Shown one piece after another: positions 1 through 17,363 of a stretch of 32,000 nt of DNA. The notes below the pieces were generated by a model that searched no databases, was not told the DNA's origin, and saw nothing but the letters and a program-made list of their open reading frames with translations. Source of the DNA: Cupriavidus necator (GTDB lineage: Bacteria; Pseudomonadota; Gammaproteobacteria; Burkholderiales; Burkholderiaceae); contig NZ_CP066018.1 of assembly GCF_016127575.1 (NCBI RefSeq), positions 3,450,001 to 3,482,000 of the forward strand. Reading direction: 5' to 3'. Numbering within the stretch: position 1 is the first letter of the stretch; each line of letters begins with the position of its first letter. The position numbers and the translations under genes were made by a program.

Positions 1-758
1 AGCAGCTTGAGCACCTGGATCAGGTAATGCCCGGTTTCCATCGCGAGCGCGAAGATATTGCCGTAGGTAGACCGGTCCAGCGCATAGCGCAGGTCGAGCC
101 CGATGCGCTGGATGGTGCCGACGCTGCCGAAGGGACGCTGGTCGATCAGCTGTCCGCCCCGGATGACTTCGCCGATCAGCAGATCGCGGAAGTACTGGCC
201 CATCGCCACCATGAAGCCGACCATCTGGCGATGGAAATTGCGGTTGACCACTGCGCCGGCCGGGGCCTGCGCGGTGCCATAGTTGAAGGCGCGCCGATAG
301 GCCACCATGCGGTCCTGCCGGGTGTAGCGCAGTGGCCGCCATTTTTCGAGCAGATAGAGTCCGCGCGCGCCGGGGCCGCGCTGGATGCGCATCTTCCCCA
401 GGCGGAACAAGCGCAGCAGGGTCTCGACCACCTCAAAGATCTTCATGCGCTCGTGCTGATAGATAAAGTACAGCTCGGCAGCCGCATGCAACTGGCTCGG
501 GATGATTGAATCGTCGAAGTCAGGCTGTACATAGGGATAGCCGATCTTCTCGAAGCCGACTGCCCCCTGAGGACCGAGGCCGAGCAGATCGAAGAAGCCT
601 TCCTCCCCGCTGCCATTGGGTTTGGACAACAGTTCAGAGTAACGCTGCTCGAACTGCGAGGCGAAGGCGTCGCGCTGGTCGGGCGGCAGGCTGGCCAGCT
701 GCTCCTGCAGAAAGGTCTCCCACAGGCGCTGAATGGTTTCGGTGGTCTGGAAGTTCAT
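1..758 (-). CDS. hypothetical protein, first 252 codons only (gene runs off the left edge); last visible gene of the unknown operon
   Basis: Absent from the ORF track because it has no stop inside the window. Reverse-strand ATG at 758-756, GGAG (revcomp of ctcc at 765-768) 6 nt upstream, open to position 1. My translation begins MNFQTTETIQRLWETFLQEQLASLPPDQRDAF and continues ...AELYFIYQHERMKIFEVVETLLRLFRLGKMRIQRGPGARGLYLLEKWRPLRYTRQDRMVAYRRAFNYG... Composition is globular-looking. Start lies 21 nt after the stop of the 692-aa gene. No family recognised. Confidence 0.6.
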   Translation of the reverse strand, partial: MNFQTTETIQRLWETFLQEQLASLPPDQRDAFASQFEQRYSELLSKPNGSGEEGFFDLLGLGPQGAVGFEKIGYPYVQPDFDDSIIPSQLHAAAELYFIYQHERMKIFEVVETLLRLFRLGKMRIQRGPGARGLYLLEKWRPLRYTRQDRMVAYRRAFNYGTAQAPAGAVVNRNFHRQMVGFMVAMGQYFRDLLIGEVIRGGQLIDQRPFGSVGTIQRIGLDLRYALDRSTYGNIFALAMETGHYLIQVLKL

Positions 759-779: not shown

Positions 780-2858
780 TCAGGCCTTGGCAGGGCCGCC
801 GTCGGGACCCGCAGGGCCCGCTCCGCTACCGTCGGCGCCAGTACCTTCGGTGCCGTCGAAGGCATCAGCCGCACCGGGAGTGAGAGGGGCGGGGGCAGCG
901 GCGGGCGGCACGGCGGACGTGCCCGGCGTAAGGAGTCGCCGGCGATTCCGTTCCCCCAACTCGTGCGCGATACGATCGATCGAGCCGTCCGGATGTGGCG
1001 GAATCTGCGGGGCGTGCTCGCGATAGTCGCGGTTGCGCCGGTGCCACTCGGGCACGCGCTGCTCGATCATCATCAACGCGCCGCGCTGGTATCCCGGCAG
1101 CATTCCGATATTGCCAAAGGTCCCCATATGTGGCGGACTGTGATAGACGGGGGCGAGCGTCGCATCTGCAAGCATATCCGAGGCCGGAATGCAGCCGGAT
1201 GTCATCTGTTCGACGATGGGCCGCAGTGCGCGCTCGGCCTGCAGCTGGAGCACAAGCTCGCCATGCATCAGCCAGGCGAGCGGTGTCGGTCCTGCCGGCC
1301 CCGTCAGATCGAAGTGATCAATGGTGTGCTTGTCCCATACACGCCATTGGGGCGCGGGGATGACCGGATCCTGCGGGGCGGCGAAGCTGACCCCTGCCGG
1401 GATCAGCAGTGCGGCCATTTCCGACAGCATTGCGCCCGTCGGGTTGTCGGGATTGGTGATGTCCTTCATCGGTGCAGCGGCATCGAGCCAGACATCGGGG
1501 TAACGCAGCGCCAGCGCAAAGATGGCGTGGGCGGCGGCACGCTGTTCCGGCATGCCAAACTCTTCGGTGCCGTTGGCGTAGAGATCGATTGCGCGGTCGA
1601 GATCGTGCAGGACACGGTCAAGCAGGACCTGCAGCTTGAGCGTATCGGGGTCGCAGTCGCAACGGGTGACACAGTCGATGGTCGAAGCAAATCTGCCGCG
1701 CAGACTGACCAGATTCATCAGACGCTGCTCGGCAAAGGTGGTGCCGCTCCCTCCGTAAAGGCCATACATCAGTACGCTGGGACGCGCAATGCGCAGGAGG
1801 CGCAGGCCGCCGGAAGCCTGGAAGCCGTCCACGAACAACTGCAAGGCGTCCTGAAACGCCAGCAGCGGTGGCGCGTCGCGGACCGGCAGGTGCAGCGTCA
1901 CCTGCACGAAGCGCGAGAACCGCCCGAGCATGTTCCATGCGGTCGCGCCGACCCGGCGCAGCCCGTCGCTCGAGCCTCCCGCACACAGCTGGATCATTTC
2001 GTCCATCGCACGGGAAAGGTCGGCTTCGTGGAGCAGTGCCCGCAGGTCCGACTGGCCATGCGCTTCGAGACTGGCGTGCAGGCCGCGATAGGCGGCCAGG
2101 CCTCGCGGCATCGTGTTCTGGTCCAGCGATTCCTGGGCCACGCCCGACATATTGCGCAGGCACACCAGCACCTGGTCGCGCCGCGCCTGCAGTTCAGAGT
2201 AGGGCACGCGCAGTAATGTGCGCCCGCCCTGGAAGCCTGTATTGGCGAGCGCCTCGCCCATCAACACCAGAAGCACCGCAGCCACTTCGTCGAGGCTCTG
2301 CCCGAGATTGCGATAGCTTTCGTTCAGCTCGGTGGACAGCGCGCCCACCATCCGCGCCAGCCTGGCATATTCGCCCAGGCGCCGCCGTGCGGCGAAAGCC
2401 CGGTCCCGGCTGTAGGGGTCGAGGGACTGGCGTGCCGCCGCGACGCCATCGTCGATGGTGAGGGACAGGGTCTGATGCCACCCCTCCAGCTCTGGCCGGA
2501 TGTCCTTGGTCAGGTTGCTCGCGATCAGTTGCTGCAGATCCTGCTCCACATCCGCCCGGGCCTGATCCAGATCCAGATTGGTCGCGGTCGCCTCCGGCGC
2601 AGCGATGGCCGAGGGCCGTGGAGCCGCGGTATTCAGGAACGGCAGTCCCTGAGCCTCGCCGCCGATACCCTGCGCGCGCGCGTCGGACTGGTAGCGGTCC
2701 AGCAATGCTCTCGCGATCTGCTGGGCGTCGTTGGGATCTCCGATCTTCAGTTCGCGCCGCAGCAGGGTATCGAAGGCGAGCCGCTGGCTGTTTCCGATGC
2801 TCATGGGTTTGCCGTCGGAGCCGGACGGAACCGGTTGGGGAATCGCGGGATAGGCCAT
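780..2858 (-). CDS. hypothetical protein, 692 aa, no recognised domain; Pro/Ala/Gly-rich C-terminal tail
   Basis: ATG at 2858-2856 with GAGGA a few nt upstream. The track ORF has ordinary protein-like composition, whereas the overlapping plus-strand ORFs (963-2216 etc.) are R/H/Q-rich shadow frames. Same orientation as its neighbours with short gaps (51 nt upstream, 21 nt downstream). Confidence 0.7.
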   Translation of the reverse strand: MAYPAIPQPVPSGSDGKPMSIGNSQRLAFDTLLRRELKIGDPNDAQQIARALLDRYQSDARAQGIGGEAQGLPFLNTAAPRPSAIAAPEATATNLDLDQARADVEQDLQQLIASNLTKDIRPELEGWHQTLSLTIDDGVAAARQSLDPYSRDRAFAARRRLGEYARLARMVGALSTELNESYRNLGQSLDEVAAVLLVLMGEALANTGFQGGRTLLRVPYSELQARRDQVLVCLRNMSGVAQESLDQNTMPRGLAAYRGLHASLEAHGQSDLRALLHEADLSRAMDEMIQLCAGGSSDGLRRVGATAWNMLGRFSRFVQVTLHLPVRDAPPLLAFQDALQLFVDGFQASGGLRLLRIARPSVLMYGLYGGSGTTFAEQRLMNLVSLRGRFASTIDCVTRCDCDPDTLKLQVLLDRVLHDLDRAIDLYANGTEEFGMPEQRAAAHAIFALALRYPDVWLDAAAPMKDITNPDNPTGAMLSEMAALLIPAGVSFAAPQDPVIPAPQWRVWDKHTIDHFDLTGPAGPTPLAWLMHGELVLQLQAERALRPIVEQMTSGCIPASDMLADATLAPVYHSPPHMGTFGNIGMLPGYQRGALMMIEQRVPEWHRRNRDYREHAPQIPPHPDGSIDRIAHELGERNRRRLLTPGTSAVPPAAAPAPLTPGAADAFDGTEGTGADGSGAGPAGPDGGPAKA

Positions 2859-2909: not shown

Positions 2910-4208
2910 CTACGACACCAGGTGCAATAGCGCAGGCTGCGGCTCGTACGGCGCTGCGCGCGGGCGTCGCGAGGCCATGCGCGCGCTCAGCTGGCCGATC
3001 ACGCAGTGCGCGAGGCGCCTCGGCGGGATGCGCCCGTCCACTATCGCGTAGTGCGCGGCGCTCACGAGGTGGCGGGGAGGCAGTCCGGTTTCACGTTCGG
3101 ACGCAAGCAGCCGCGCGCCTTCGCGAATGGCCGCCTCGTCGTCACGCGAGAAGGGAATGATGTCGGCCAGGGCGCGCTGGGCGAGGTTGCGGCGCGTCTG
3201 GAACGCAATCTCGTCGACGACGTCCGGGACGATGCGCGGCACGCTCAGCATCAGCGCGGCGGGTATGCGGTGCCCGGCGGAGGGCTGGTACAGGTTTTGC
3301 CAAACCCGTAACAACCGTGCGGCGTCGCGCGCGAAGCCGAGCCGGCGTAGCATTTCGGCCAGCAGGTAGACACGCAGGTAGGCGGTGGGATGCGCGCCGC
3401 CGGGCCGGTAGGTCATGGTGCGCGGCTGGGGGTGCGCGAGGAAATCCGCCATGCCCCAGGCCGCCGCCGGGCCACCGAGCAGGATGGCCGCGAGGTCCGC
3501 GAAGATCTCCTTGTGCCAGCGGCCGTAGACGGTGGCGAGGAAGGGATCGCGCGTCTTGCCCATGGTGCGCCTGAGTACGGCCTGGCGGTTTTCCCTCCAG
3601 ATGCCGAGGTCGGCCTGCAGGTTGTGGGCGACTTCATGCAGGAAGACCGATTGCCACGGCTGGTCTCGGTCCCAGGGTATGCGGATCAGCGGAAAGGGAT
3701 TGGCCTCGCCGAGCAGCCGCGACAGCGCCACGCCACGGCGCATCGTCGCGGGAGAATAGCCGTGCTCCATGTAGCAGACCGGCTTGAGCAGCGGGCCATC
3801 GAAGACGCGTGGCGCGGCGCGTCGAACGGCGCGGTAGCAGTCTTCGGCGATGACGTCGTGCGCGGCGAGCGACGGGCCGAAGCTCGTGCCCCGCTGCGCG
3901 AACACTTCGTAGAACATGCCGAACAGCCGCCGCGCGCGGTCAAGTTCGCGCTCGACCAGCGCCACGTCGATCAACACCCGTTGCGCAGGCCTCTGCTGCC
4001 AGTCCGGCAGCATCTGATCGAAGCGCGCGCGGATGCGTTGCTCGGCCTGGGCCAGCCGCGCGTTGGCCGTGTCGAAATGTTGCTGCGAAGGCGCATGGGG
4101 CATGTCTTGCGGGCGCAGTCCGACAAAGGCGTTGTCGACCCGGGCCAGCCGCGACAGGCGCGCGGACAGGCCGCGAATCTTCGCGCTCAGGAATCGCTGC
4201 AGGTTCAT
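2910..4208 (-). CDS. putative zinc metallopeptidase (HExxH motif), 432 aa, family not recognised
   Basis: ATG at 4208-4206, G-rich SD-like stretch upstream. HEVAH (residues 191-195) is encoded by revcomp of 3624-3638 in the context SVFLHEVAHNLQADLG. A possible third-ligand Glu lies in WHKEIFADLAA about 40 residues downstream (gluzincin-like spacing). No signal peptide visible. Confidence 0.7.
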   Translation of the reverse strand: MNLQRFLSAKIRGLSARLSRLARVDNAFVGLRPQDMPHAPSQQHFDTANARLAQAEQRIRARFDQMLPDWQQRPAQRVLIDVALVERELDRARRLFGMFYEVFAQRGTSFGPSLAAHDVIAEDCYRAVRRAAPRVFDGPLLKPVCYMEHGYSPATMRRGVALSRLLGEANPFPLIRIPWDRDQPWQSVFLHEVAHNLQADLGIWRENRQAVLRRTMGKTRDPFLATVYGRWHKEIFADLAAILLGGPAAAWGMADFLAHPQPRTMTYRPGGAHPTAYLRVYLLAEMLRRLGFARDAARLLRVWQNLYQPSAGHRIPAALMLSVPRIVPDVVDEIAFQTRRNLAQRALADIIPFSRDDEAAIREGARLLASERETGLPPRHLVSAAHYAIVDGRIPPRRLAHCVIGQLSARMASRRPRAAPYEPQPALLHLVS

Positions 4209-4246: not shown

Positions 4247-5323
4247 TCATGCGCCACGGACGATGATGGTCACCGGCCCACGCACATGCATGCGACGGCC
4301 GCCGCAGTGTGGGCAGCCGACGCCATGGCCGCCATAGTTGCGGGACTGGGCGCGCGGGCCGGTTGCCGCGACACGGCGCGCTAACGGCGCTATCGTGCGC
4401 GCGGCGGCCTGCGCGCCGCGGCCGCGCGGCGTGGCCCGGCGCGCCGCAGGCACCAGCGGCTGCGACAGCTGGCGCGCCGCCTGGGGTCGCCGTGCCACGG
4501 CTTGCGCGGTGCGGGTGGCGGTACGCACAGCGGCGCGCGGCGGCAGCTGGCGCGCCTGCACTGTGCGTTGCGTGGCGCGCACCGCGCGTGCAACCGCGCG
4601 TGCCGCGGGGGCGCCGCTGGTGCGGGTGGCCGTTCGCACCGCCTGGGCCACGCCGCGCACCGCGGCGCGACGCACGGCGGGCGCGGCGCGCGCGACCGAG
4701 GGGAGGGCGCGGCGGAGCACCATGCCGGCCAGCACCGGCGCGGCGGCGTCGATCGCATCCTCGTCGAGTCCATCCACCAGTTCGTCGAAGGTCTCATACT
4801 CGTCGGCGCCGTCGGCGAGCATGCGCCCGGCCACATTGGCGATGCGCCCGATCAACTGCGCTTGTGGAAGAGGAATCATGCTGGCGATCGGTCCCACCAC
4901 ACGCGCGGCCTGCCCAATGCCTTGCCCCACGCGGCGCGCGACATTGACCGCGCCGCTCGCCATGCGCCGCAGGCGGCGGAAGAACTCGTCGGCGTCACCG
5001 GCTTCCATGGCATCGGCCACGGCGTCCTCCATGCCGTCCAGTTCGTCGTAGGCGGCCTCGTATTCGTCGACGGAGTCGATGCCGTCCACGTCCTCGTAGG
5101 TATCGCCCTCGTCCTCGCCTTCGTCATACTGGGTCGCGCCGCCTGCGAGCACGCGGCCGACGAAGTTGTCCTCGCCTTCATCCCATTCGTCGTAGCTGTC
5201 GTTGCCCTCGTCGGATTCGTCGTACCCGTCGTCGTGCATCAGGTCCATCGCGCTGCCTCGAGTGGGGCCCTCGGCGGCTTCATCCATCAGCTCGTCCATT
5301 ACATCGGCCTCGAATCGGTCCAT
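4247..5323 (-). CDS. lysine-free charge-bipolar protein A, 358 aa (acidic N-terminal third, Arg/Ala-rich remainder)
   Basis: ATG at 5323-5321 with AAGGAG 6 nt upstream. By my hand count about 45 D/E in the first ~113 residues, then about 40 Arg and no Lys anywhere. Paralogous to the upstream gene: shared DEFF/DEFL-RRL block, an internal acidic DG(L/I)DE block and a C-terminal GPVT motif. Ends ...CPHCGGRRMHVRGPVTIIVRGA. Confidence 0.65.
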   Translation of the reverse strand: MDRFEADVMDELMDEAAEGPTRGSAMDLMHDDGYDESDEGNDSYDEWDEGEDNFVGRVLAGGATQYDEGEDEGDTYEDVDGIDSVDEYEAAYDELDGMEDAVADAMEAGDADEFFRRLRRMASGAVNVARRVGQGIGQAARVVGPIASMIPLPQAQLIGRIANVAGRMLADGADEYETFDELVDGLDEDAIDAAAPVLAGMVLRRALPSVARAAPAVRRAAVRGVAQAVRTATRTSGAPAARAVARAVRATQRTVQARQLPPRAAVRTATRTAQAVARRPQAARQLSQPLVPAARRATPRGRGAQAAARTIAPLARRVAATGPRAQSRNYGGHGVGCPHCGGRRMHVRGPVTIIVRGA

Positions 5324-5359
5324 GGTGTGCTCCTTGGTGTGCGGCTCAAGTTGATTGGC

Positions 5360-6502
5360 TCAGCGGGGTGCGACCGTCAGCGTCACAGGTCCGCCGAAGT
5401 GGAAGGTCCGGGGTCTTCTCGGCCGGATGGTGCGCACGCCGCGGCCGATGCCTGTGGGGCGGGCCATCGGCCCAGGGGGAGCGGGTTGCGCCAGGCGATC
5501 GAGCATGCGGGGATTGGCGACGACGCGGCGCGCGGCCTGGGGCAGCCCACGGCGCAGCGCCCGCGCGGCCTGGTTCGGCGGTTGCTGGCGTTGGCGTGCG
5601 ACGCGGGTGGCGGCGCGCGCCAGCGGTGCCAGGGCGCGTGTGGCCCCGGGTCCGCCTGCGCGCGCCAGTTCGCGTGCCGCGCTGGCGACGCCGCGCACGA
5701 GTTGCCGCCGGCCCGCGGCCGATAGTTGCGCCACATTTGACAGGCCGAGTCCGCGCGCGGCGGCTCGCGTGGCGAGCGCCACCGCTGCGGGCAGGGCCTC
5801 GTCGATGCCGTCGTTGGCATAGAGATCGATCATCGCGTCCATGCCCTGGCTCGCGCTGGCCTGCGAGGCGAGCAGTTGGCTGATCTGCGCGAGCATGTCC
5901 TGAGTGCCGCCGCCAAGGGTGCCGAGGGCGCCCGCCTGCCGGCGCGCCTGGCGCGCCGCGTGGCTGACGTCCCCGGCAAGGCGGCCAGCGGTTTGCAGGC
6001 CGCGCGCAAGGTTCGGCGCGCCCAGCATGCGCGCAAGGGCGGCCGCCGCGTTGGCGGTGGGGGAAGCAGCCTGCGCCACCCGGCCCACCTGTCCCGCCAC
6101 GCGGCCCGCCCTTCGTGCGACGCCCTGCATGCGTCCGGCCTGGCGGCTTATCACCCCGGCCGCGCGGCCGAGGCCGCCCAGCAGGCGGCCGAGAAATTCG
6201 TCGTCGTCGGCGGCGTCGAGGCCGTCGGCTACTTCTTCCTCGAAGGCGTTCCATACGGCCATCTGGTCGATGTGGTCGCCGATGTCGGTGTCTTGCGCGG
6301 CCGCCATATCGGCCGAATCTGTCTCGTCCGTGAAAGCATCGTCGCCCCCGTCCTCGTCAAACGGGGACGCGGTCCGCGCCAAGCCCGATTGCAGCGCGGC
6401 ATGATCGGCGGCGTCGTCGGCCGTGTCGCCGTAGTCCGTGCTACTGGCGTATTCGTCCAAACTGAGGTCTTCCATCAGGTCATTGTCGAATTGGTCGCTC
6501 AT
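5360..6502 (-). CDS. lysine-free charge-bipolar protein B, 380 aa, paralog of protein A; first gene of the operon
   Basis: ATG at 6502-6500 with GGAGG upstream. About 34 D/E and one Arg in residues 1-102 (hand count), then an Arg/Ala/Gly/Gln-rich region with heptad-like units (ARRAGRV AGQVGRV). No Lys in 380 aa. Ends ...RPRTFHFGGPVTLTVAPR. Confidence 0.65.
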   Translation of the reverse strand: MSDQFDNDLMEDLSLDEYASSTDYGDTADDAADHAALQSGLARTASPFDEDGGDDAFTDETDSADMAAAQDTDIGDHIDQMAVWNAFEEEVADGLDAADDDEFLGRLLGGLGRAAGVISRQAGRMQGVARRAGRVAGQVGRVAQAASPTANAAAALARMLGAPNLARGLQTAGRLAGDVSHAARQARRQAGALGTLGGGTQDMLAQISQLLASQASASQGMDAMIDLYANDGIDEALPAAVALATRAAARGLGLSNVAQLSAAGRRQLVRGVASAARELARAGGPGATRALAPLARAATRVARQRQQPPNQAARALRRGLPQAARRVVANPRMLDRLAQPAPPGPMARPTGIGRGVRTIRPRRPRTFHFGGPVTLTVAPR

Positions 6503-6956
6503 CGCATGCCTCCACGCGGCCGTGTGTCATGCCGCTGTCATGGCCACTCTAGATGCGGCGAGGTGCCCGCCGCATCGCCCGATGCCTCTGGCACGGCGGG
6601 ATTCGCGCGACCGGCCGGGCGCGACAGGACCGGCGCATCGGGGTACGGCACAACGGGCCCGCAAGGCGGGGCGTGCCGCCTTGCCGTAGCCGGAATGGGG
6701 TAGCCTGCTTGCGCTCTCGCTTTTTCCTTGCAAAGTCACCGGCCATATGCCAAAACAAAGAAGTTTCGAGCGGCCTGTGTCAGGGAAAAGTGCAGCGGGG
6801 GCACTGCAGCCTGACTCAGGGGAACGCAGCTTGTCAGCGCGCACGGATACGAATGCGGACTCGAAGCCGGCAGTTGAGCTGTGCCGTCATGCGGGCATCC
6901 GGCGTGCCGTTCGCTCGTCGTCGTGTTGCCAGGCGGAACGACAAGAAGGAAAAACC
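6503..6956. promoter_or_regulatory. 454-bp divergent intergenic control region between the unknown operon and the LuxR-type gene
   Basis: No convincing ORF. Contains the only AT-richer patches in this part of the window (about 6715-6765). Both flanking genes start here and point outward. Promoters are not mapped; this is positional inference only. Confidence 0.4.
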
Positions 6957-7493
6957 ATGCTTCACAGATTCCGCCGGGGGGCGCTGCTGGCACCGTACAG
7001 CGCATTAGGGGATTCGCCCACGGCCGGGTACGGGGCGGCGGCAATCCGGTCGGGCAGTTGGGGGAGAGAGGTCTGCGAGGTCGAACTGGGCGGCCGGCGA
7101 TGTCGGTTGCTGCAGGTAGGCGGCCTGCGTGCGCCACGCGGGGGGGCGTACGGGGAAGGCGAGATTACCCAGTTCGAGTTCGAGGGGAACTATTACGCCC
7201 TGATCGCTGATCCGGTGGCCGTGCCGGCGGCCGCGCCGCTGCCGGCCGGCGAGCCGCGTCCCGCCGTCCCCGATGTGCGAAGCGTGTTGACCGTGCGCGA
7301 ACTGCAGATCGTGCAACTCGTCTGCATGGGCTATTTGACTAAGCAGATCGCGGGCCGGCTTCATATCAGCGAATTTACCGTCCGCTCGTATCTCAAGACG
7401 ATCTACTGCAAACTCGGTGTCCGATCGCGCGCGGCGATGGTGTTCTGCTATATGCAGGCATGCGCTGGAGGCGCGGACGGCGCCCAAACCTGA
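6957..7493 (+). CDS. LuxR/GerE-family helix-turn-helix transcriptional regulator, 178 aa, with unrecognised N-terminal domain
   Basis: C-terminus LTVRELQIVQLVCMGYLTKQIAGRLHISEFTVRSYLKTIYCKLGVRSRAAMV is a classic GerE/LuxR HTH. I chose the ATG at 6957 (AGGA about 8 nt upstream) rather than the track start at 6747, whose extra 70 residues look like non-coding read-through. Confidence 0.8.
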   Translation: MLHRFRRGALLAPYSALGDSPTAGYGAAAIRSGSWGREVCEVELGGRRCRLLQVGGLRAPRGGAYGEGEITQFEFEGNYYALIADPVAVPAAAPLPAGEPRPAVPDVRSVLTVRELQIVQLVCMGYLTKQIAGRLHISEFTVRSYLKTIYCKLGVRSRAAMVFCYMQACAGGADGAQT

Positions 7494-7572: not shown

Positions 7573-9441
7573 TCACAGGAACCCGATCGAGAACCAAGGC
7601 ACCAGTGTCAGCAGCAGCAAAGCCACCAGCAGCGCCGCCATGTGCGGCCAGACCCGCGGCATGGCCACGTCAGGCGAGACCCGCCCGATGGCGCAAGCCG
7701 CGTAGAAGCCGACGCCGAACGGTGGCGCAAACAGGCCCAGGCCCATGGCGAAGATCACCACCATGGCGTAGTGGACTTCATGCACGCCGACGATCTTTGC
7801 GATCGGGAACAGAAGCGGGCCGAACAGCACGATGGCCGGGATGCCTTCAAGCAGGCTGCCGAGCAGGACGAATGCCAGCGCCGACACCAGCAGGAATCCG
7901 GTCTTGCCGCCCGGCACGGCGGACATGATCTTCACCAGGTCGCCGGCGAAGCCCGATTGCGTCAGCGCCCACGCCATTGTGGTGGCGCAGCCGACGATCA
8001 GCAGGATCGCGCCGGACAGCGCAGCGGTATCGACCAGCATCGGGTAGATGCTGCGCCAGTGGAAGCGCCGGTAGACGAAGATGCCGGCGAGCACTGCGTA
8101 GAAGATGCCGATGGTGGACACTTCGGTCGCGGTGGCCACGCCTTCCACTACCGCGGTGCGGATGATCACGGGCAAGGCCAGGGCCGGCAGGGCCACCAGC
8201 AGCGATTTCACGATCACGGCGCGCGTAGGGCGTACCACCGTGCTCATGTCTTCCTTGCGCGTCTGGAACCAGCCTACGCAGGCCATCATGACCAGGCCCA
8301 CGGCCGCAGGCATCAGGCCGCCGATGAAGAGCGAGGTGATCGACACACCGGTGACCGATCCCACCGTGATCAGCACGATGCTGGGCGGGATCGTTTCGGA
8401 CATCGCGCCGGACGCCGACAACAATCCGATCAGGTCACCGTCCCTGGCGCCGCGCTGCTTCATTTCCGGGAACAGCGCGGGCGCGACCGCTGCCATGTCG
8501 GCTGCCTTTGCGCCGGAGATGCCGGACACGATATACATCGCGCCGAGCAGCACGTACTGCAGGCCGCCGCGCACATGCCCGATCAGGTTGGCGAGGAAAC
8601 TGATCATGGCGCGCGCCAGTCCGGTCATCTCGATCAGCGCGCCCAGGAAGACAAAGAGCGGCACGGCGAGCAGGATCAGGTGCGACATGCCTTCCTGCAT
8701 GCGGTTCGGGACGATCGACAGCGGGGTCGTGGTGGTGAAGGCCAGGTAGCACATGGTGGCCAGGCCGAAGGCAAAGGCGATCGGCACGCCAATGGCGACG
8801 CATACCACCAGCACCAGCAGGAAGAAGATCACCAGGTTGATGTTGCCGAGTTCTGCCAGCACCGGGGACAAGGCCCACAAGATTGCCCCGATTACGCCCA
8901 CCGCCACGCCGCTGACGAGAACCCGTTTACAGTCGGCCTGCGCGACCAGCCGGATGACGGCCGTCGCCAGCATCAGCAGCGCGCCGGCGAGCACCGCCGC
9001 GGAGCGATAGCCCTCGCTGATCTCCAGCGTTGGCGACGAGACTTCGATGTGTTCACTCAGGTGCTCGTAGGCCGGCCAGACCAGCATCAGCAGGAACGCC
9101 ACCACCAGCCACATGCCAAAGGCATCGAGCCACGCGCGCCTGCCCGGCGCCAGGTCCTTGATGAAGGTGGTCAGTTGCATATGCGCGCTGCGCTGCAGCG
9201 CAATGATGGCGCCCAGCATGGCCAGCCAGAGGAACAGGATGCTGGCCAGTTCATCGGTCCAGGGGATCGGCGCATGCAGGACATAGCGCGCGAAGGCGCC
9301 ACCGCCCAGGATGGCGATCTCGGCAAGCACGATCAGCGCGGCCGGAATCTCCACGGCCCAGCGCATGGCGCGGCCCCACACGGCAAGGGCGGCGCCTGGT
9401 TCCTGCGGTGCGCCAGCGAAGGTTTCGGCAGTGTGCTCCAT
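7573..9441 (-). CDS. TRAP transporter fused permease (DctQ-like small plus DctM-like large subunit), 622 aa
   Basis: Highly hydrophobic multi-span sequence with DctM-type blocks (ISGISGAKAADMAAVAPALFPEMKQRG, LLEGIPAIVLFGPLLFPIA). Start set at ATG 9441-9439 (MEHTAETF..., GGAG upstream). The track ORF runs on to 10074, but that part overlaps the upstream binding-protein gene. Confidence 0.9.
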   Translation of the reverse strand: MEHTAETFAGAPQEPGAALAVWGRAMRWAVEIPAALIVLAEIAILGGGAFARYVLHAPIPWTDELASILFLWLAMLGAIIALQRSAHMQLTTFIKDLAPGRRAWLDAFGMWLVVAFLLMLVWPAYEHLSEHIEVSSPTLEISEGYRSAAVLAGALLMLATAVIRLVAQADCKRVLVSGVAVGVIGAILWALSPVLAELGNINLVIFFLLVLVVCVAIGVPIAFAFGLATMCYLAFTTTTPLSIVPNRMQEGMSHLILLAVPLFVFLGALIEMTGLARAMISFLANLIGHVRGGLQYVLLGAMYIVSGISGAKAADMAAVAPALFPEMKQRGARDGDLIGLLSASGAMSETIPPSIVLITVGSVTGVSITSLFIGGLMPAAVGLVMMACVGWFQTRKEDMSTVVRPTRAVIVKSLLVALPALALPVIIRTAVVEGVATATEVSTIGIFYAVLAGIFVYRRFHWRSIYPMLVDTAALSGAILLIVGCATTMAWALTQSGFAGDLVKIMSAVPGGKTGFLLVSALAFVLLGSLLEGIPAIVLFGPLLFPIAKIVGVHEVHYAMVVIFAMGLGLFAPPFGVGFYAACAIGRVSPDVAMPRVWPHMAALLVALLLLTLVPWFSIGFL

Positions 9442-9503
9442 CGTCGTGTCTCCATGCGGCACGCGCTGAGGCGCGGCTTCTCGTTCAGTCTGGTGGTATG
9501 GCG

Positions 9504-10523
9504 TCAGGCCAGGCGGCCCGCGTATTTCTCGAGCTTGGCCCAGGCTTCCTCGCCGTACTTCTTCTTCCACTCGGTGTAGAAGCCCGCGCTTTGCAGCAAC
9601 TGGCGGAAGGGCGCGGGATCGGGCCGGTTCAGCGCGATGCCGAGCTTGCCCAGTTCCGCCTGCGCATCGACATTCAGCCTGGCGATGTCTTCGCGCTGGC
9701 GCAGCGCCGCGCTGTTGAAATGGGTGGCGATGGTCGCCTGCACTTCCTTGGGCAGCGCCTGGAATTTCCTGGCGTTGCCGAAGATGAAGTGGCCATCCCA
9801 GGTATGCGCGGTAAGCGAGCAGAACTTCTGGACTTCGTACAGCTTGGCGCTGCGGATCAGGGCCAGCGGGTTTTCCTGGCCGTCCACCACCCGCGTCTGC
9901 AGCGCGGAGTAGAGCTCGCCGAACGGAATGGCGGTGGGCGCGGCGCCAAGCGCCTTGAACATCGAGATCCAGAGCGGGATGCCGGGAACGCGGATCTTGA
10001 AGCCCTTCAGGTCCGCAGGGGTCTGAACCGGCCGGCTGGCCGAGGTGATATTGCGGTAGCCGTTGTCCAGGCACTTTTCAAACACGTGCAGGTTGACCTT
10101 GCCCAGCGCTGCCCGCACGTGCGCGCCGACGTCGCCATCCATGGCCGCCCAGACCGTGGCGTAGTCCTTGAAGGCAAAGGCGACACCGTTGATGCCGGCG
10201 GTCGGCACCAGCGTCTGCAGGTTGGTGCCGGCAGTGGACATGAAATCCATGGCTCCGGCGCGGGTCTGCGAGATCATGTCGGGCTCGCTGCCCAACTGGC
10301 TGGCGGGATACACCTGGAGATCCACCTTGCCGCCGGTGTCCTTGCGGATGGCCTCCGCGGCTTCCTTGATGCGCAGTGTGCCCGGGTGGTCCGCAGGAAA
10401 CGCCGTGCCGTACTTGAGCCGGATGCCGGCGCCCTGGGCAAGGCCGTGGCGTACCGGCAATGCGAGCGCGAGACTGCCTGCGGCCAGGGCGCCGAACTGG
10501 CGGCGTGTCAGGGAGAAGGTCAT
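9504..10523 (-). CDS. TRAP transporter substrate-binding protein, DctP family, 339 aa
   Basis: N-terminal signal (MTFSLTRRQFGALAAGSLALALP) and DctP-family blocks (KGFKIRVPG, GELYSALQTRVVDGQENPL). Sits immediately upstream of the permease gene. Confidence 0.9.
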   Translation of the reverse strand: MTFSLTRRQFGALAAGSLALALPVRHGLAQGAGIRLKYGTAFPADHPGTLRIKEAAEAIRKDTGGKVDLQVYPASQLGSEPDMISQTRAGAMDFMSTAGTNLQTLVPTAGINGVAFAFKDYATVWAAMDGDVGAHVRAALGKVNLHVFEKCLDNGYRNITSASRPVQTPADLKGFKIRVPGIPLWISMFKALGAAPTAIPFGELYSALQTRVVDGQENPLALIRSAKLYEVQKFCSLTAHTWDGHFIFGNARKFQALPKEVQATIATHFNSAALRQREDIARLNVDAQAELGKLGIALNRPDPAPFRQLLQSAGFYTEWKKKYGEEAWAKLEKYAGRLA

Positions 10524-10559
10524 GGTGATGTGTGCTCCTGTATTGAAAGATCTGGCGCC

Positions 10560-12056
10560 TTATTGGCGCGGCGGCATGGACAGCAATGCCGCCGCGCCGC
10601 GGTTTGCCAGTGCCGCCAGGTAAGCGGCAAGGCGGGCGGCAAGGGGCGCGGGCCACGGCGTGGTGCCAAAGACGGCGGCATGGCCGAGCGCCTGGCGCGC
10701 GGCATCGGCGTCGCAGCCTGCGCTGCGCAGGCGATCGGCCAATGCCGCGGCGCCGGGGTCGCTGATCGCAAGTACCTCGCCGCAGTCGCTGCGGCCGGTT
10801 CGCAGGTAATGCAGCCACATCGCCAGCGCACGCTCAAGGAATGGCCGTTCGACGCCCGCGCTGCAGCTTTCGCGCAAGGCGGGCAGCCAGCGCACGGGGA
10901 TCTTCTGCGTGCCATCCGTCGCGATCTGTGCGGTCAGGTGGGCGAGGGCGGTATTCTCGAAGCGATGCAGCAGTTCGCGACAGTAGCGGTCGACGTCATA
11001 GCCTGGCGGCGCCGCAACAGTGGCGCGCAAGTCTTGCATTACGCCCCGCGCGAATGCGGCGGCAGCGGGATTCGCCATGACGTCTGCGATGCTGGAAAAT
11101 CCGCCAAGCTGACCGGCATAGGCCATTGCCGAATGGGTGCCGTTGAGCAGGCGCAGCTTCATTGCCTGGTAAGGCCGGACATCGGTCGTCAGCAGCGCGC
11201 CACCGGCTTCCCATGCGGGCCGTGGTCCCGCGAAACGGTCTTCGATGACCCATTGCGTGAAGGGCTCGCACACGACGGCGGCTTCGTCGCGCACGCCGAG
11301 CAGCCGGCTGGCCAGGTCGAGCGATGCTGTGCTGGCGGCCGGCACGATCCGGTCGACCATTGAATTGGGCAGTGCGATCTCGTCCTCGATGCGCCGTGGC
11401 AGGTTTGGATCGGACAGTTCCGCGAACTGTGCAAGCAGCCGACGCAAGGTGTCGCCGTTGCCCGCCATGTTGTCGCAGCACACCACGCTGAGCGGGGCGC
11501 CGCGCGGCCGGCGGCGTATGCCCGCCGCAAGGATGCCGAGGGTGCTGCGGGGGCGCTCCGGGTTGGCCAGGTCGTGGCGGATGTTTTCATCGCCGAGGTC
11601 GAGCCCGGTCGTTGACGGGAGCTGGCTGTAACCCTTCTCGGTCACGGTGCTGGTGACGACGCTGACCGCCGGGTCAGCGATGGCGTCGATTACCTGCTTC
11701 AGGGCCTGTGGCGCATACAGCGACGCAACCACGGCACCGACGATCCGTGTGTGGCTGGCATCGCCATGACGCTCGGTGACCGAATAGAGATGGTCCTGGG
11801 CTTGCAGCGTGTTGCCCGTGGCGGGGCTGCGCAAGCTGACGCCGATGATTCCCCACCGGGTATCGCCCTGCGCCAGGGCGGCTTCGGTGTACAGCGCCTG
11901 GTGGGCGCGGTGGAATGCACCCAGACCCAGATGCACGATGCCCCGGCCCAGGCCGGAGCGATCGTAGCGAGGACGCTCGACCCCGGCACGCACCTTGAGA
12001 AGGGCTTCTTGTGAGAGGCGCTGATGGCGTGCTGCCGTGGCGGAAATGGGCTGCAT
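10560..12056 (-). CDS. uxuB: mannitol dehydrogenase family oxidoreductase, fructuronate reductase / D-mannonate oxidoreductase-like, 498 aa
   Basis: N-terminal GIVHLGLGAFHRAHQALY dinucleotide-binding block and VTEKGY motif typical of the long-chain mannitol dehydrogenase family. Co-oriented, 36 nt upstream of the TRAP genes. Confidence 0.8.
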   Translation of the reverse strand: MQPISATAARHQRLSQEALLKVRAGVERPRYDRSGLGRGIVHLGLGAFHRAHQALYTEAALAQGDTRWGIIGVSLRSPATGNTLQAQDHLYSVTERHGDASHTRIVGAVVASLYAPQALKQVIDAIADPAVSVVTSTVTEKGYSQLPSTTGLDLGDENIRHDLANPERPRSTLGILAAGIRRRPRGAPLSVVCCDNMAGNGDTLRRLLAQFAELSDPNLPRRIEDEIALPNSMVDRIVPAASTASLDLASRLLGVRDEAAVVCEPFTQWVIEDRFAGPRPAWEAGGALLTTDVRPYQAMKLRLLNGTHSAMAYAGQLGGFSSIADVMANPAAAAFARGVMQDLRATVAAPPGYDVDRYCRELLHRFENTALAHLTAQIATDGTQKIPVRWLPALRESCSAGVERPFLERALAMWLHYLRTGRSDCGEVLAISDPGAAALADRLRSAGCDADAARQALGHAAVFGTTPWPAPLAARLAAYLAALANRGAAALLSMPPRQ

Positions 12057-15592: not shown

Positions 15593-17363
15593 ATGAGCAA
15601 GCTACTGCTCGGACCCGTGCTGTCGTTTCGTGGCCTCGGAACGGATGGCTCATGGAAGGTGACGGCGCTCATCGGCATCGAAGATCAAGCCAGGGTTCCT
15701 CCGGTCACCGTGGAGGGCCGCAAGGCCGGCAAGCCGGTGATCCTGCTGCAGCATGCGGGCCACACCTATCTGCGCTACGACTTGTCCTGCAAGCTGCGCA
15801 AGAACGAACGGCGGGTACCGTACAGCATCGAAGGTGTCGGGGAAGCGTGGCACTTTACCGTGCCCGGCAAGGGCTACGCGCCGCGCATGGCCTATGTTTC
15901 GTGCAACGGATTCTCCGACCCGAGCGGCATGCGCAAGCTGGTCAAGGCTGAGAATGCGGTTTGGGCGGACTTGCTGTGCAACCACGACAAGGACATCCGT
16001 CCGGCAGGCTATGAGCTGGACAAGGAGCAGCTCTGGCACGAGGCGCGTACCCATGACCAGGGCAACCAGCGCTTCCATCTGATGCTGATGGGCGGCGACC
16101 AGATCTACTTCGATTCGATCTGGGAAGACCTCAAGCTGCTGAAGCGCTGGATCGGGTTGACGCGCGAGGAGCAGCTGCAGTACCCGGTGGATGCTGACCT
16201 CGAGAAGGAAATCGAGGACTACTATTTCAAGCACTACAGCGAGCGCTGGCTGCCTCATGCAAGGTCAGGGTGGGGTAGCGCAGACAAGCCGCTCGATGCT
16301 GCCCAGGCCATGGCACGGATCCCCACGGTGATGATGTGGGATGACCATGACATCTTCGACGGCTGGGGTTCCTATAGCTCCGAGATGCAGCGCAGTCCGT
16401 TGTTCCAGCGGCTGTTCTTCCATGCGCGCCGGGCCTTCTGGGTGTTCCAGATGCAGCATGCTGTCGAGCAGCTTCCCGACCTGGTGCCGCGCACTGACGT
16501 CAGGGTCCGGTCTGACGATCCATTGTTCGAACCGGTCAAGTGGTCTCAGGTGCTGTCCAGCGACAAGCTTGCGCTGCCGTTGCTGGACGAGCAGCCGGGG
16601 TTCACGTTCGCGCATTCGGCTGGCCCAGTCAGCGTGATCGTTGCCGACCTGAGGACCGAACGATCCCAGGAACAGGTGCTTGGACCCGGTACCTGGGGCG
16701 CACTGCAGCGGTGGCTGTCGGGGATCGAGTCGGGCGATGCCGCCAGCCCCGGCGGCATCAATTGCCAGCATCTGCTGCTGATGTCTTCCGTGCCCGTGGT
16801 GCATCCCAAGCTGTCGCTGGCCGAAGCCTTCCTGGACAACTTTGGCCAGGATCATGTGCTCGACAGCTGCCGATGACCTCAAGGACCACTGGACCCACGA
16901 CGACCACGAGGGCGAGAGGAAGCGCCTGGTGGAGACCTTGCTCAAGACCGCCAGCCAGAAGCAGCTGCGGGTCACGATCATCTCTGGCGATGTCCATGTC
17001 GCGGCCTGGGGTGTCGCCTGCAGGAAAGATGTGGGGCCGAAGGACAACTGGGCGCAGATACAGCAGCTGACCAGTACTGCCGTGGTGCATCCCTCGCTGG
17101 TCGGGGTCATGGAGCGTCTGTTCTTCCATGTGCTGAACAACGTCGCTCAGTCGAAGCAGGCGCTTGATGTCAACTTGTCCGCGGAAATGATGCTCTTCCC
17201 CGGATCCAACCGGTACGTGATGCCGGCCAGGAACTGGCTTGCGATCGAGTTGGACCGGGGCACGGACAACCCGAACGGCTGCAAGCTGTGGGCGACGTGG
17301 CGGTGCGAGACCAAGGCGGCGTTCACCAATCACCTGCTGGCTACCGATCCGGTGAACTTATAA
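15593..17363 (+). pseudogene. PhoD-like metallophosphatase family gene interrupted by a frameshift near 16862-16872 (two track ORFs, 15509-16876 and 16842-17363)
   Basis: Metallophosphatase motifs are split across the two frames: GGDQIYFD and MMWDDHDIFDGWGS in the first, ISGDVHVAAWG in the second. The first frame ends ...FGQDHVLDSCR*. The +1 frame continues ...AADDLKDHWTHDDHEGERKRLV with no plausible independent start. ATG 15593 has AAAGGGAG upstream. Confidence 0.7.

Follow-up and report, generated by a model that had tools for sequence, protein, structure and literature searches.

Two adjacent genes of Cupriavidus necator encode proteins without a single lysine, in which an acidic N-terminal block is followed by an arginine-rich remainder. 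They lie in a stretch of 32,000 nts (contig NZ_CP066018.1, positions 3,450,001 to 3,482,000), referred to here as the window, and are genes 1 and 2 of an operon which comprises eight genes in C. necator and extends beyond the left end of the window. Gene 1 (5360..6502, minus strand) encodes protein B, a B-type lysine-free diblock protein of 380 amino acids (aa) defined by its open reading frame (ORF), its composition, 116 homologue clusters and an AlphaFold2 model. Gene 2 (4247..5323, minus strand) encodes protein A, the A-type lysine-free diblock protein of 358 aa, defined by its ORF, its composition and 266 homologues. Both ORFs were found at the coordinates and on the strand given by an initial annotation of the window, which had also described A and B as tandem paralogues. 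This relationship is borne out by a BLASTP match across the C-terminal halves of the two proteins (E = 2e-9) and by a joint alignment, in which an N-terminal motif, a junction motif, a second acidic patch and the tail are common to A and B. The sequence of protein B matches that of a C. necator protein at 100% identity, and the orthologue of strain H16 (Q0KAC9) falls into the same 90%-identity cluster.

A GGAGG or GGAG Shine-Dalgarno sequence is located 6-7 nts 5′ of both ATGs, that of B being the GGAGG read from the sequence at 6509..6513 (minus strand). In homologues of about 50% GC, the sense frames are the only open frames, the antisense frames containing 7 to 34 stops, which removes the concern of the initial annotation that another frame could be the real one in this GC-rich DNA. 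In addition, the A and B families display conserved protein motifs with in-frame indels, and genes of the A/B operon were called in many independent assemblies. Comparison of the homologues establishes A and B as a conserved protein pair, which is to all appearances translated.

On recount, the numbers of Lys, Asp/Glu and Arg that had been obtained by hand for both proteins proved to be exact. Together, A and B contain 0 Lys in 738 residues vs 86 Arg. Protein B has 0 Lys and 42 Arg, with 34 Asp/Glu and a single Arg in residues 1-102, while A has 0 Lys and 44 Arg, with 45 Asp/Glu in residues 1-113 and 41 Arg beyond residue 113. The peptides quoted in the initial annotation were all recovered (ARRAGRVAGQVGRV at B129, AVRTATRT at A228 and ARAVARAVRATQRT at A241), as were its internal acidic patches at A170 and B221. 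With a crude set of genes in the window taken as reference (2.4% Lys, K/(K+R) = 0.23), the naive probability of finding 0 Lys in 738 aa is about 2e-8, and it is about 3e-10 when calculated for the 86 basic residues. The GC content of the window is 62-74%, and the genes near A and B contain 1-4% Lys.

The absence of Lys extends to the homologues, which form more than 230 clusters for A and B together; for the A-type, the counts cover the 114 clusters listed of 266 homologues. The B family contains 31 Lys vs 4709 Arg in 42,480 aa (116 clusters, 95 of them Lys-free) and the A family 63 Lys vs 5103 Arg in 38,257 aa (96 of the 114 listed clusters being Lys-free). When both families are pooled, 94 Lys are found vs 9812 Arg, corresponding to a K:R ratio of about 1:100, and 191 of the approximately 230 clusters are Lys-free. 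The bias is maintained in genomes of moderate GC content. At the Nitrosomonas locus (GC 50%), genes 1 and 2 have 0 Lys in 710 aa, compared with an average of about 4.9% Lys in the flanking genes and with 20 and 16 Lys in genes 4 and 5 of the operon, respectively. Similarly, 0 Lys are present in 696 aa at the Methylococcales locus (GC 51%, GC3 of about 0.5), where gene 5 contains 16 Lys in 181 aa, and 0 Lys in 658 aa in a metagenome-assembled genome (MAG) labelled Microcystis (GC 48%). The low-GC homologues do use the Arg codons AGA and AGG, which are one transition away from the Lys codons. At variable columns of A and B in which Arg is the majority residue, Gln accounts for 42% of the replacements, Gly for 14%, Ala for 9% and Lys for 0.8%; by the same measure, the share of Lys is 8-10% when genes 3 and 4 of these genomes are compared. 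Because 0 Lys persists at 48-51% GC and because the replacement of Arg by Lys is rare compared with genes 3 and 4, the comparison argues strongly that Lys is selected against specifically in A and B. Conservation of the Lys absence, which had been left to be checked on homologues, is thereby upheld.

Two A-type proteins depart from this pattern. In the loci examined (designated L001 to L022, with L023 for a C. necator contig), P0431 (L022, 1140-2147) contains 13 Lys and is encoded on a contig of 71% GC with a complete operon, while P0499 (L021, 1004-2071) contains 17 Lys. In both proteins, the Lys are spread over the whole basic part at positions that are Arg elsewhere; Lys is therefore tolerated structurally, and the pressure against it seems to be lineage-dependent. 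The exclusion of Lys is very strong, not absolute. The gene 1 protein of L021 is divergent too, in that it is not Arg-rich and ends in the tail RLTIRRPAEITIRYLD.

The products of genes 3 and 7 and the DUF4438 protein (gene 9) are also Lys-poor in all loci, with K/(K+R) at about 0.05-0.2 and hosts of about 50% GC being no exception, which is not the case for genes 4, 5 and 6. This gradient across the operon could stem from constrained ancestral Arg positions or from a pressure common to these genes. Among other explanations of the Lys deficit, a depletion of tRNA-Lys was rejected because other operon genes use Lys normally, and nitrogen storage because the composition is too mild. A secreted effector evading host ubiquitin was likewise rejected, the hosts being environmental bacteria and the proteins being without a secretion signal.

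The second property of A and B is the segregation of charge. Sequence charge decoration deviates from that of shuffled sequences by 22 standard deviations for B and by 36 for A, the next two operon proteins remaining within 1.4 standard deviations, while the net charge per residue of both A and B is close to 0. To quantify this in the families, 190 full-length homologues were split at the junction motif by a regular expression. The N-terminal block carries a net charge of -37.5 +/- 5.8 (37% Asp/Glu, 9.4% Phe/Tyr/Trp, 0.05% Lys) and the C-terminal block one of +30.2 +/- 4.4 (16.5% Arg, 20% Ala, 12% Gly, 0.13% Lys), so that the acid/base split pointed out in the initial annotation is a family trait. 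The total charge is -7.2 +/- 4.4, and its variance is 19 vs 53 for the sum of the block variances. The charges of the two blocks are negatively correlated (r = -0.67 overall, -0.80 in A-types and -0.45 in B-types), and a correlation is retained in 80 non-overlapping contrasts between nearest relatives (sister pairs; r = -0.32, p = 0.003). Across 13 loci, the compensation takes place within one polypeptide (A: r = -0.92) and not across the paralogues. These comparisons argue firmly for selection on the charge balance between the blocks.

The architecture of the diblock proteins was examined on an AlphaFold2 model of B, based on a 76-sequence alignment and with a mean pLDDT (predicted local distance difference test) of 72; all coordinates that follow for A and B are on the minus strand. 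Residues 1-78 (6269..6502) form an acidic and aromatic block, predicted to be disordered (pLDDT 44-57), in which the alignment reveals a conserved motif, M-x-x-F-D-x-D-(V/L)-M-(D/E), and an acidic tract of variable length. Residues 84-113 (6164..6253) constitute the junction, W-x-AFEEEVADGLDAxDxDEF(L/F)GRLLGGLGR, which is also present in A and is modelled with a pLDDT of about 88-90. Its D101, E102 and F103 are invariant in A- and B-types, with nearly invariant flanks, and lie within predicted helices spanning residues 80-136 (pLDDT of about 90 at 80-110). Residues 114-215 (5858..6163) contain Gly/Ala/Arg heptads of variable length, which resemble an antiparallel coiled coil in PDB profile matches and in the model; residues 137-215 are predicted to be helical with low pLDDT and vary by indels in the alignment. 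In a PDB search with the family profile, the heptad region matched solely designed antiparallel coiled coils and a chemoreceptor coiled coil.

Further downstream, residues 217-340 of B (5483..5854) comprise the second acidic helix and an Arg-lined helical-repeat domain, modelled as six helices at residues 220-340 with a pLDDT of 93-98. Residues 363-380 (5363..5416) form the C-terminal tail, R-x-F-x-(I/F)-x-G-P-V-T-L-T-(I/V)-x-P-R, defined from homologue tails and predicted to fold into a beta-hairpin with strands at 365-369 and 373-377 (pLDDT 80-84). The tail (GPVTLTITPR) is kept in nearly all homologues and is the most recognisable signature of the family; in the loci examined, it is confined to the C-termini of genes 1 and 2. 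The basic part is hence predicted by the model to be not a loose repeat but a coiled coil followed by a confidently folded helical-repeat domain and a beta-hairpin. In A, the acidic block (residues 1-113, 4985..5323) contains 45 Asp/Glu, 3 Arg and 9 aromatic residues, and many A-types carry within this block a second copy of the junction core, DEF(L)xR(L/I)(L/I)GG. Residues 337-358 of A (4250..4315) consist of a CPHC motif followed by the tail RRMHVRGPVTIIVRGA, a CxxC ahead of the tail being present in 66 of the 114 listed A-type clusters (58%).

Neither A and B nor the products of genes 3 and 4 gave anything above threshold in Pfam, NCBIfam, PADLOC or PHROGs. With the B model, Foldseek retrieved just generic designed helical repeats from the PDB, all at E > 0.7, and a best match of E = 0.12 from BFVD. 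PDB sequence and profile searches with A, B and the products of genes 3, 4 and 6 yielded compositional coiled-coil matches, for B alone. As far as the predicted structure can be trusted, the fold of A and B is shown to be new.

The gene order of the operon in C. necator is B, A, an HExxH protein, proteins of 692, 361, 288 and 224 aa, and a DUF4438 protein. The window contains the regulator, genes 1-4 and the first 253 codons of gene 6. This order is shared by Azoarcus, Nitrosomonas, Burkholderia, Roseateles, Steroidobacter, Lysobacter, Pseudomonas, Methylococcales and C. necator, beta-proteobacteria predominating among the hosts, which also include gamma-proteobacteria and at least one cyanobacterium (Nodosilinea). 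Genes 3, 6 and 9 are very highly conserved across the operon loci. No obvious signal peptide or membrane segment was seen in the operon products when they were read by eye, no predictor being run. In a scan of genes 5-9 of Azoarcus against Pfam and PHROGs, DUF4438 was the sole match.

Gene 3 (2910..4208, minus strand) encodes a 432-aa protein predicted from motif conservation to be zinc metallopeptidase-like, with HEVAH at residues 191-195 and WHKEIFAD at 231-238. Its size ranges from 420 to 440 aa across loci, and HEVAH and EIFAD are invariant in orthologues, the HExxH and the downstream ExxxD, with its Glu as putative third zinc ligand, forming a gluzincin-type motif; distant relatives (about 26-33% identity) keep HE[VLT]xH and E[IV]FxD. 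The protein belongs to a large unclassified HExxH...W-x-x-E-(I/V)-F-A-D family, with 1111 representatives at E <= 1e-3, and has no Pfam or PDB sequence match. Its AlphaFold2 model is too poor to assign a fold (pLDDT 64, below 50 ahead of HExxH), and Foldseek found no match to it in the PDB at E < 1. On alpha-proteobacterial plasmids, relatives of gene 3 (L018, 9818-11206; L019, 9872-11293) are located beside CHAT proteases and a 1595-aa ATPase, together with genes for C25 and S8 peptidases, phospholipase D and patatin, an arrangement reminiscent of a conflict system. A fusion to an Amidase_2 (N-acetylmuramoyl-L-alanine amidase) domain, present in one relative, was the only result of Pfam scans of the distant relatives.

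Gene 4 (780..2858, minus strand) encodes a conserved 692-aa protein, which is syntenic in every complete locus, varies from 575 to 800 aa and has no family or PDB match. Between genes 4 and 6 of L001-L022 lies a variable slot of 0-345 aa, whose products are non-homologous between genomes and have a normal or high Lys content. In C. necator the slot is empty, as seen in the window, the gene 4 stop being at 780 and the gene 6 start at 758. This slot (e.g., L002, 15297-15830; L015, 10230-11267) is the sole non-conserved position of an otherwise rigid operon, and a coiled coil is predicted for its product in several loci. Gene 6 runs off the left end of the window, its 5′ part being translated from 1..758 (minus strand) and the full 361 aa being available in L023; in L001, the gene is located at 16243-17352. 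It encodes the most conserved protein of the operon, which is 84% identical to its Azoarcus orthologue, with 57% of columns invariant across 13 genomes and an identity of 75-87% over beta- and gamma-proteobacteria and a MAG labelled as a cyanobacterium; no Pfam, PHROG or PDB match was obtained. Gene 7 encodes an acidic protein, and gene 8 an Arg-rich protein that is optional.

The last gene of the operon, located outside the window (L023, 17261-18316 in C. necator; L001, 19129-20178), was assigned to DUF4438 by Pfam matches (PF14505 and PF20999, E = 6e-54 and 1e-48) and by PDB matches. Its product is homologous to Thermotoga TM1086 (PDB 3dcl and 3n99, E = 5e-67), whose PDB entries hold 5 and 30 chains and whose full-length crystals contain more than 1 MDa per asymmetric unit (PMC2661377). 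By analogy, this hints that the DUF4438 protein may be a large oligomer. Through the operon, DUF4438, an orphan of structural genomics, is placed in a genomic context for the first time.

Upstream of gene 1, comparison of loci revealed a -10-like hexamer, TAGAGT (6546..6551, minus strand), 49 nts 5′ of the B start codon. The sequence C-TAGAGT-G occurs 49-176 nts 5′ of gene 1 in eight loci (the window, L001, L004, L005, L006, L007, L011 and L017), and farther 5′ are a TTG-containing -35-like element and a conserved CAACGCGG-like motif. TAGAGT is inferred from this conservation to be a promoter element, and the elements 5′ of it may be a putative site for the adjacent GerE regulator. A generic sigma-70 scan returned no promoter, the hexamer emerging only from the comparison of loci. 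The regulator, of the GerE/LuxR family (GerE domain, E = 2e-14), is encoded divergently at 6957..7493 (plus strand; 178 aa as called in L023) and adjoins the operon in the window, in the C. necator contig L023 and in 11 of 13 other distinct loci with a match. Its similarity to orthologues starts at about residue 90 of the mechanically called 248-aa ORF (6747-7493), which is probably over-extended; with a start near 6957, the divergent intergenic region is therefore about 450 nts. An Rfam scan of the whole window returned no match.

Beyond the regulator, the minus strand at 7573-12056 encodes ordinary neighbours, namely a fused DctQ-DctM tripartite ATP-independent periplasmic (TRAP) transporter protein, listed as an 833-aa ORF that is over-extended (622 aa in gene calls), along with a DctP solute-binding protein and an enzyme of the mannitol dehydrogenase family; these genes are not kept beside the operon in other genomes. 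The operon genes are absent from phage genomes (scanned with gene 3) and from IMG/VR viral contigs (scanned with gene 6), and remote gene 3 relatives are all that was found on plasmids. Against the known defence models of PADLOC, no match at E <= 1 was obtained for four window proteins. The operon is without functional annotation, and the A/B family and its operon stand outside every described kind against which they were tested by sequence, structure and context.

The reading of A and B that is favoured here, tentatively and at somewhat less than an even chance, is that they are self-neutralising, paired scaffold or tether subunits of a cytoplasmic multiprotein assembly rather than enzymes, and that Lys is a liability to them. 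The disordered block, about 80-110 residues rich in Asp, Glu, Phe and Tyr, would form an electrostatic pair with the Arg-coated body, either of its own chain or of further copies of the protein, whereby a very basic surface would remain masked or engaged in self-association. Docking of A and B to other operon products would be mediated by the N-terminal motif and the C-terminal hairpin. A scaffold or tether role would follow from this neutralisation of the blocks and from the docking termini. Lys would be excluded as a liability to abundant, charge-dependent proteins, exposing them to acylation, cross-linking or a Lys-directed protease. Because two lineages swap many Arg for Lys with an intact operon, we argue that positive charge may matter more than the guanidinium group, Lys being avoided as a liability and the chemistry of Arg not being indispensable. 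The initial annotation had speculated on an escape from Lys-directed modification or degradation. Such an escape may be one cause of the selection against Lys and is still speculative; Pfam, NCBIfam and PADLOC scans of the operon proteins found no ubiquitin-, Pup- or transglutaminase-like domain among them.

Alternatively, A and B could be pro-proteins, whose acidic pro-domain is cut by the gene 3 product near D-E-F-(L/F), freeing an Arg-rich effector that binds polyanions or membranes. A conserved HExxH...ExxxD protein is always encoded directly downstream, and the presumed target, D101-E102-F103, is invariant in both paralogues and duplicated in the acidic block of many A-types as the second DEF(L)xR(L/I)(L/I)GG copy. 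Acidic and basic parts match each other in charge, as for an inhibitor/effector pair. For a thermolysin-like gluzincin, an acidic run followed by Phe or Leu as a bulky hydrophobic P1′ residue would be a suitable substrate, and the junction fits such an enzyme. However, the gene 3 model is poor and matches no peptidase fold, the peptidase role being predicted only; the junction itself is modelled as a confident helix (pLDDT of about 90) and not as an exposed linker. Distant relatives of gene 3 occur without A/B-like partners, and cleavage leaves the exclusion of Lys unexplained. This scheme is regarded as unlikely.

The Arg-lined helical-repeat domain could instead bind a polyanion such as RNA, DNA or polyphosphate, with the acidic tail as an autoinhibitory mimic and guanidinium as the group preferred for phosphate. 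In DNA- and RNA-binding proteins, an acidic tail in competition with the nucleic acid is a frequent feature, the C-terminal block displays 16.5% Arg on predicted helical surfaces, and the charge compensation within one chain is as such a mimic would require. On the other side, Arg is replaced mostly by uncharged residues (Gln, Gly, Ala and Ser), and it is freely swapped for Lys in two lineages, which speaks against a strict need for guanidinium. No match to a nucleic-acid-binding family or fold was found, and no nucleic-acid enzyme is recognisable in the operon. Polyanion binding as the role of A and B is thus quite unlikely.

It is also conceivable, if distinctly improbable as a whole, that the operon builds a cytoplasmic protein body of an unrecognised type. 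The DUF4438 protein would be its large oligomeric shell or core, the HExxH protein its maturation protease, and A and B the Lys-free, charge-balanced scaffold and tethers, anchored by their hairpins and organising or condensing the interior. The product of the variable slot would be a lineage-specific cargo, and the exclusion of Lys would protect the scaffold from Lys-reactive chemistry or cross-linking within the body.

A more trivial explanation would see nothing special in A and B: as ordinary hypothetical proteins of low complexity, they would lack Lys as a side effect of high GC content and of the expansion of GC-rich repeats. The window is GC-rich (62-74%) with neighbouring genes of just 1-4% Lys, Lys-free stretches are common in high-GC bacteria (PMC10665810), the Arg codons are mostly CGN, two steps from the Lys codons, and the coiled-coil region varies by indels. 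Yet the low-GC homologues described above, with 0 Lys at 48-51% GC, GC3 of about 0.5 and AGR codons in use, appear to refute this explanation largely. Control families of the same genomes exchange Arg for Lys ten-fold more often, the motifs, the confident folded domain and the synteny are conserved across classes, and the block charges co-vary. A recent transfer from high-GC donors would rescue the explanation, but the GC3 of about 0.5 of the low-GC contigs speaks against it. A compositional by-product is hence very improbable. Finally, the idea that the A/B frames are untranslated and that another open frame across 4247-6502 is the real gene, to which several long alternative ORFs and an in-register antisense frame that GC by codon position cannot separate from the sense frames (same GC1/GC2/GC3 pattern) lend themselves, has next to no chance of being correct, given the sense-only open frames of low-GC homologues, the Shine-Dalgarno sites before both starts, the conserved motifs with in-frame indels and the gene calls in many independent assemblies.

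Several points weigh against the view of A and B as Lys-averse scaffolds. P0431 and P0499 indicate that Lys is compatible with function in some hosts; because of these Lys-rich exceptions, the cost of Lys is not universal and is probably not intrinsic to the operon's own proteins. Part of the Arg bias could also have been inherited from a GC-rich ancestor, genes 3 and 9 being Lys-poor as well, and a Lys-directed enzyme was not recognised in the operon. The charge correlations derive from related sequences, for which the contrast test is a crude phylogenetic correction, and the boundary between the blocks was set by a regular expression. Both the docking of the termini and the pairing of the blocks are inferred. 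Literature searches retrieved no paper on the A/B family, the operon, or the function of DUF4438 or TM1086.

If the scaffold reading is correct, a protein family has held a near-total exclusion of one amino acid together with a quantitative balance of acid and Arg across bacterial classes. This raises the question of what Lys costs in a Gram-negative cytoplasm without ubiquitin or Pup, and of how block-charged proteins mask or assemble themselves. Both questions are testable in C. necator H16, a tractable strain that carries the operon. In addition, the analysis draws attention to an eight-gene operon, syntenic in all complete loci examined, one gene of which belongs to an unclassified HExxH family (more than 1000 cluster representatives).

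Among known systems, Lys-free regions termed lysine deserts have been described in components of the ubiquitin-proteasome system and in the proteomes of pupylating bacteria (PMC10665810, PMC10169902). Like these, A and B have a long, conserved Lys-free sequence that uses Arg as its positive charge, is enriched in Ala, Gly and Pro and is partly disordered, and the usual interpretation of lysine deserts is the avoidance of a Lys-directed reaction. Two of the three features of a lysine desert are found in A and B, namely the Lys-free length (0 Lys in 380 and 358 aa, compared with a threshold of >=150 aa or >=50% of the protein) and the conservation in orthologues. As to the third, a link to ubiquitin or Pup, scans of the operon proteins with Pfam, NCBIfam and PADLOC revealed no domain of the ubiquitin-like, E1/E2, Pup-ligase or deubiquitinase kind. 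To our knowledge, Gram-negative proteobacteria and cyanobacteria are without Pup. Unlike lysine deserts, A and B are Lys-free along the whole protein, and in them this property is combined with a charge-balanced diblock layout.

The H16 orthologue of B is labelled as a phage tail tape measure in some records, and the Ala/Gly-rich helical and coiled-coil composition of B does recall such proteins. This identity was rejected, B having no Pfam or PHROG match and no phage neighbourhood and being much shorter than tape measures usually are, and the label looks like a compositional mis-annotation. Other automatic names in A/B family records are as inconsistent and unsupported as "Tail tape measure protein", and include "serine/threonine-protein kinase", "ABC-type transporter Mla subunit MlaD" and "plasmid stabilization system protein ParE".

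ESCRT-III subunits combine a basic core with an acidic autoinhibitory tail. A and B are alike in carrying a basic helical and an acidic part on one polypeptide, for which masking or controlled self-assembly is proposed here as well, but their order is reversed, with the acidic part first, and there is no sequence or fold similarity. The nearest approach to the ESCRT-III group was a sub-threshold match to the PspA-associated PspAA domain (PF22743, E = 0.025), which did not reach the cut-off. The cargo-loading peptides of encapsulins and bacterial microcompartments (BMC), and phage scaffolding proteins, provide another parallel, in which short conserved termini are carried by variable, partly disordered proteins. 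A and B similarly have a conserved N-terminal motif and a C-terminal hairpin, which are candidate targeting peptides, alongside a putative protease and a DUF4438 protein whose homologue formed crystals of more than 1 MDa per asymmetric unit; in contrast to those systems, no encapsulin, HK97-fold or BMC shell domain is present in any operon protein, and a DUF4438 cage is hypothetical. Lastly, Arg-rich polyanion binders of the protamine type pair with acidic chaperones, and share with A and B an exclusively Arg-based basicity and its neutralisation by polyacidic sequence, although the Arg part of A and B is predicted to be folded (pLDDT 93-98) and is not a disordered tract. The resemblances to ESCRT-III, to cargo peptides and to protamines with their chaperones are functional analogies only.

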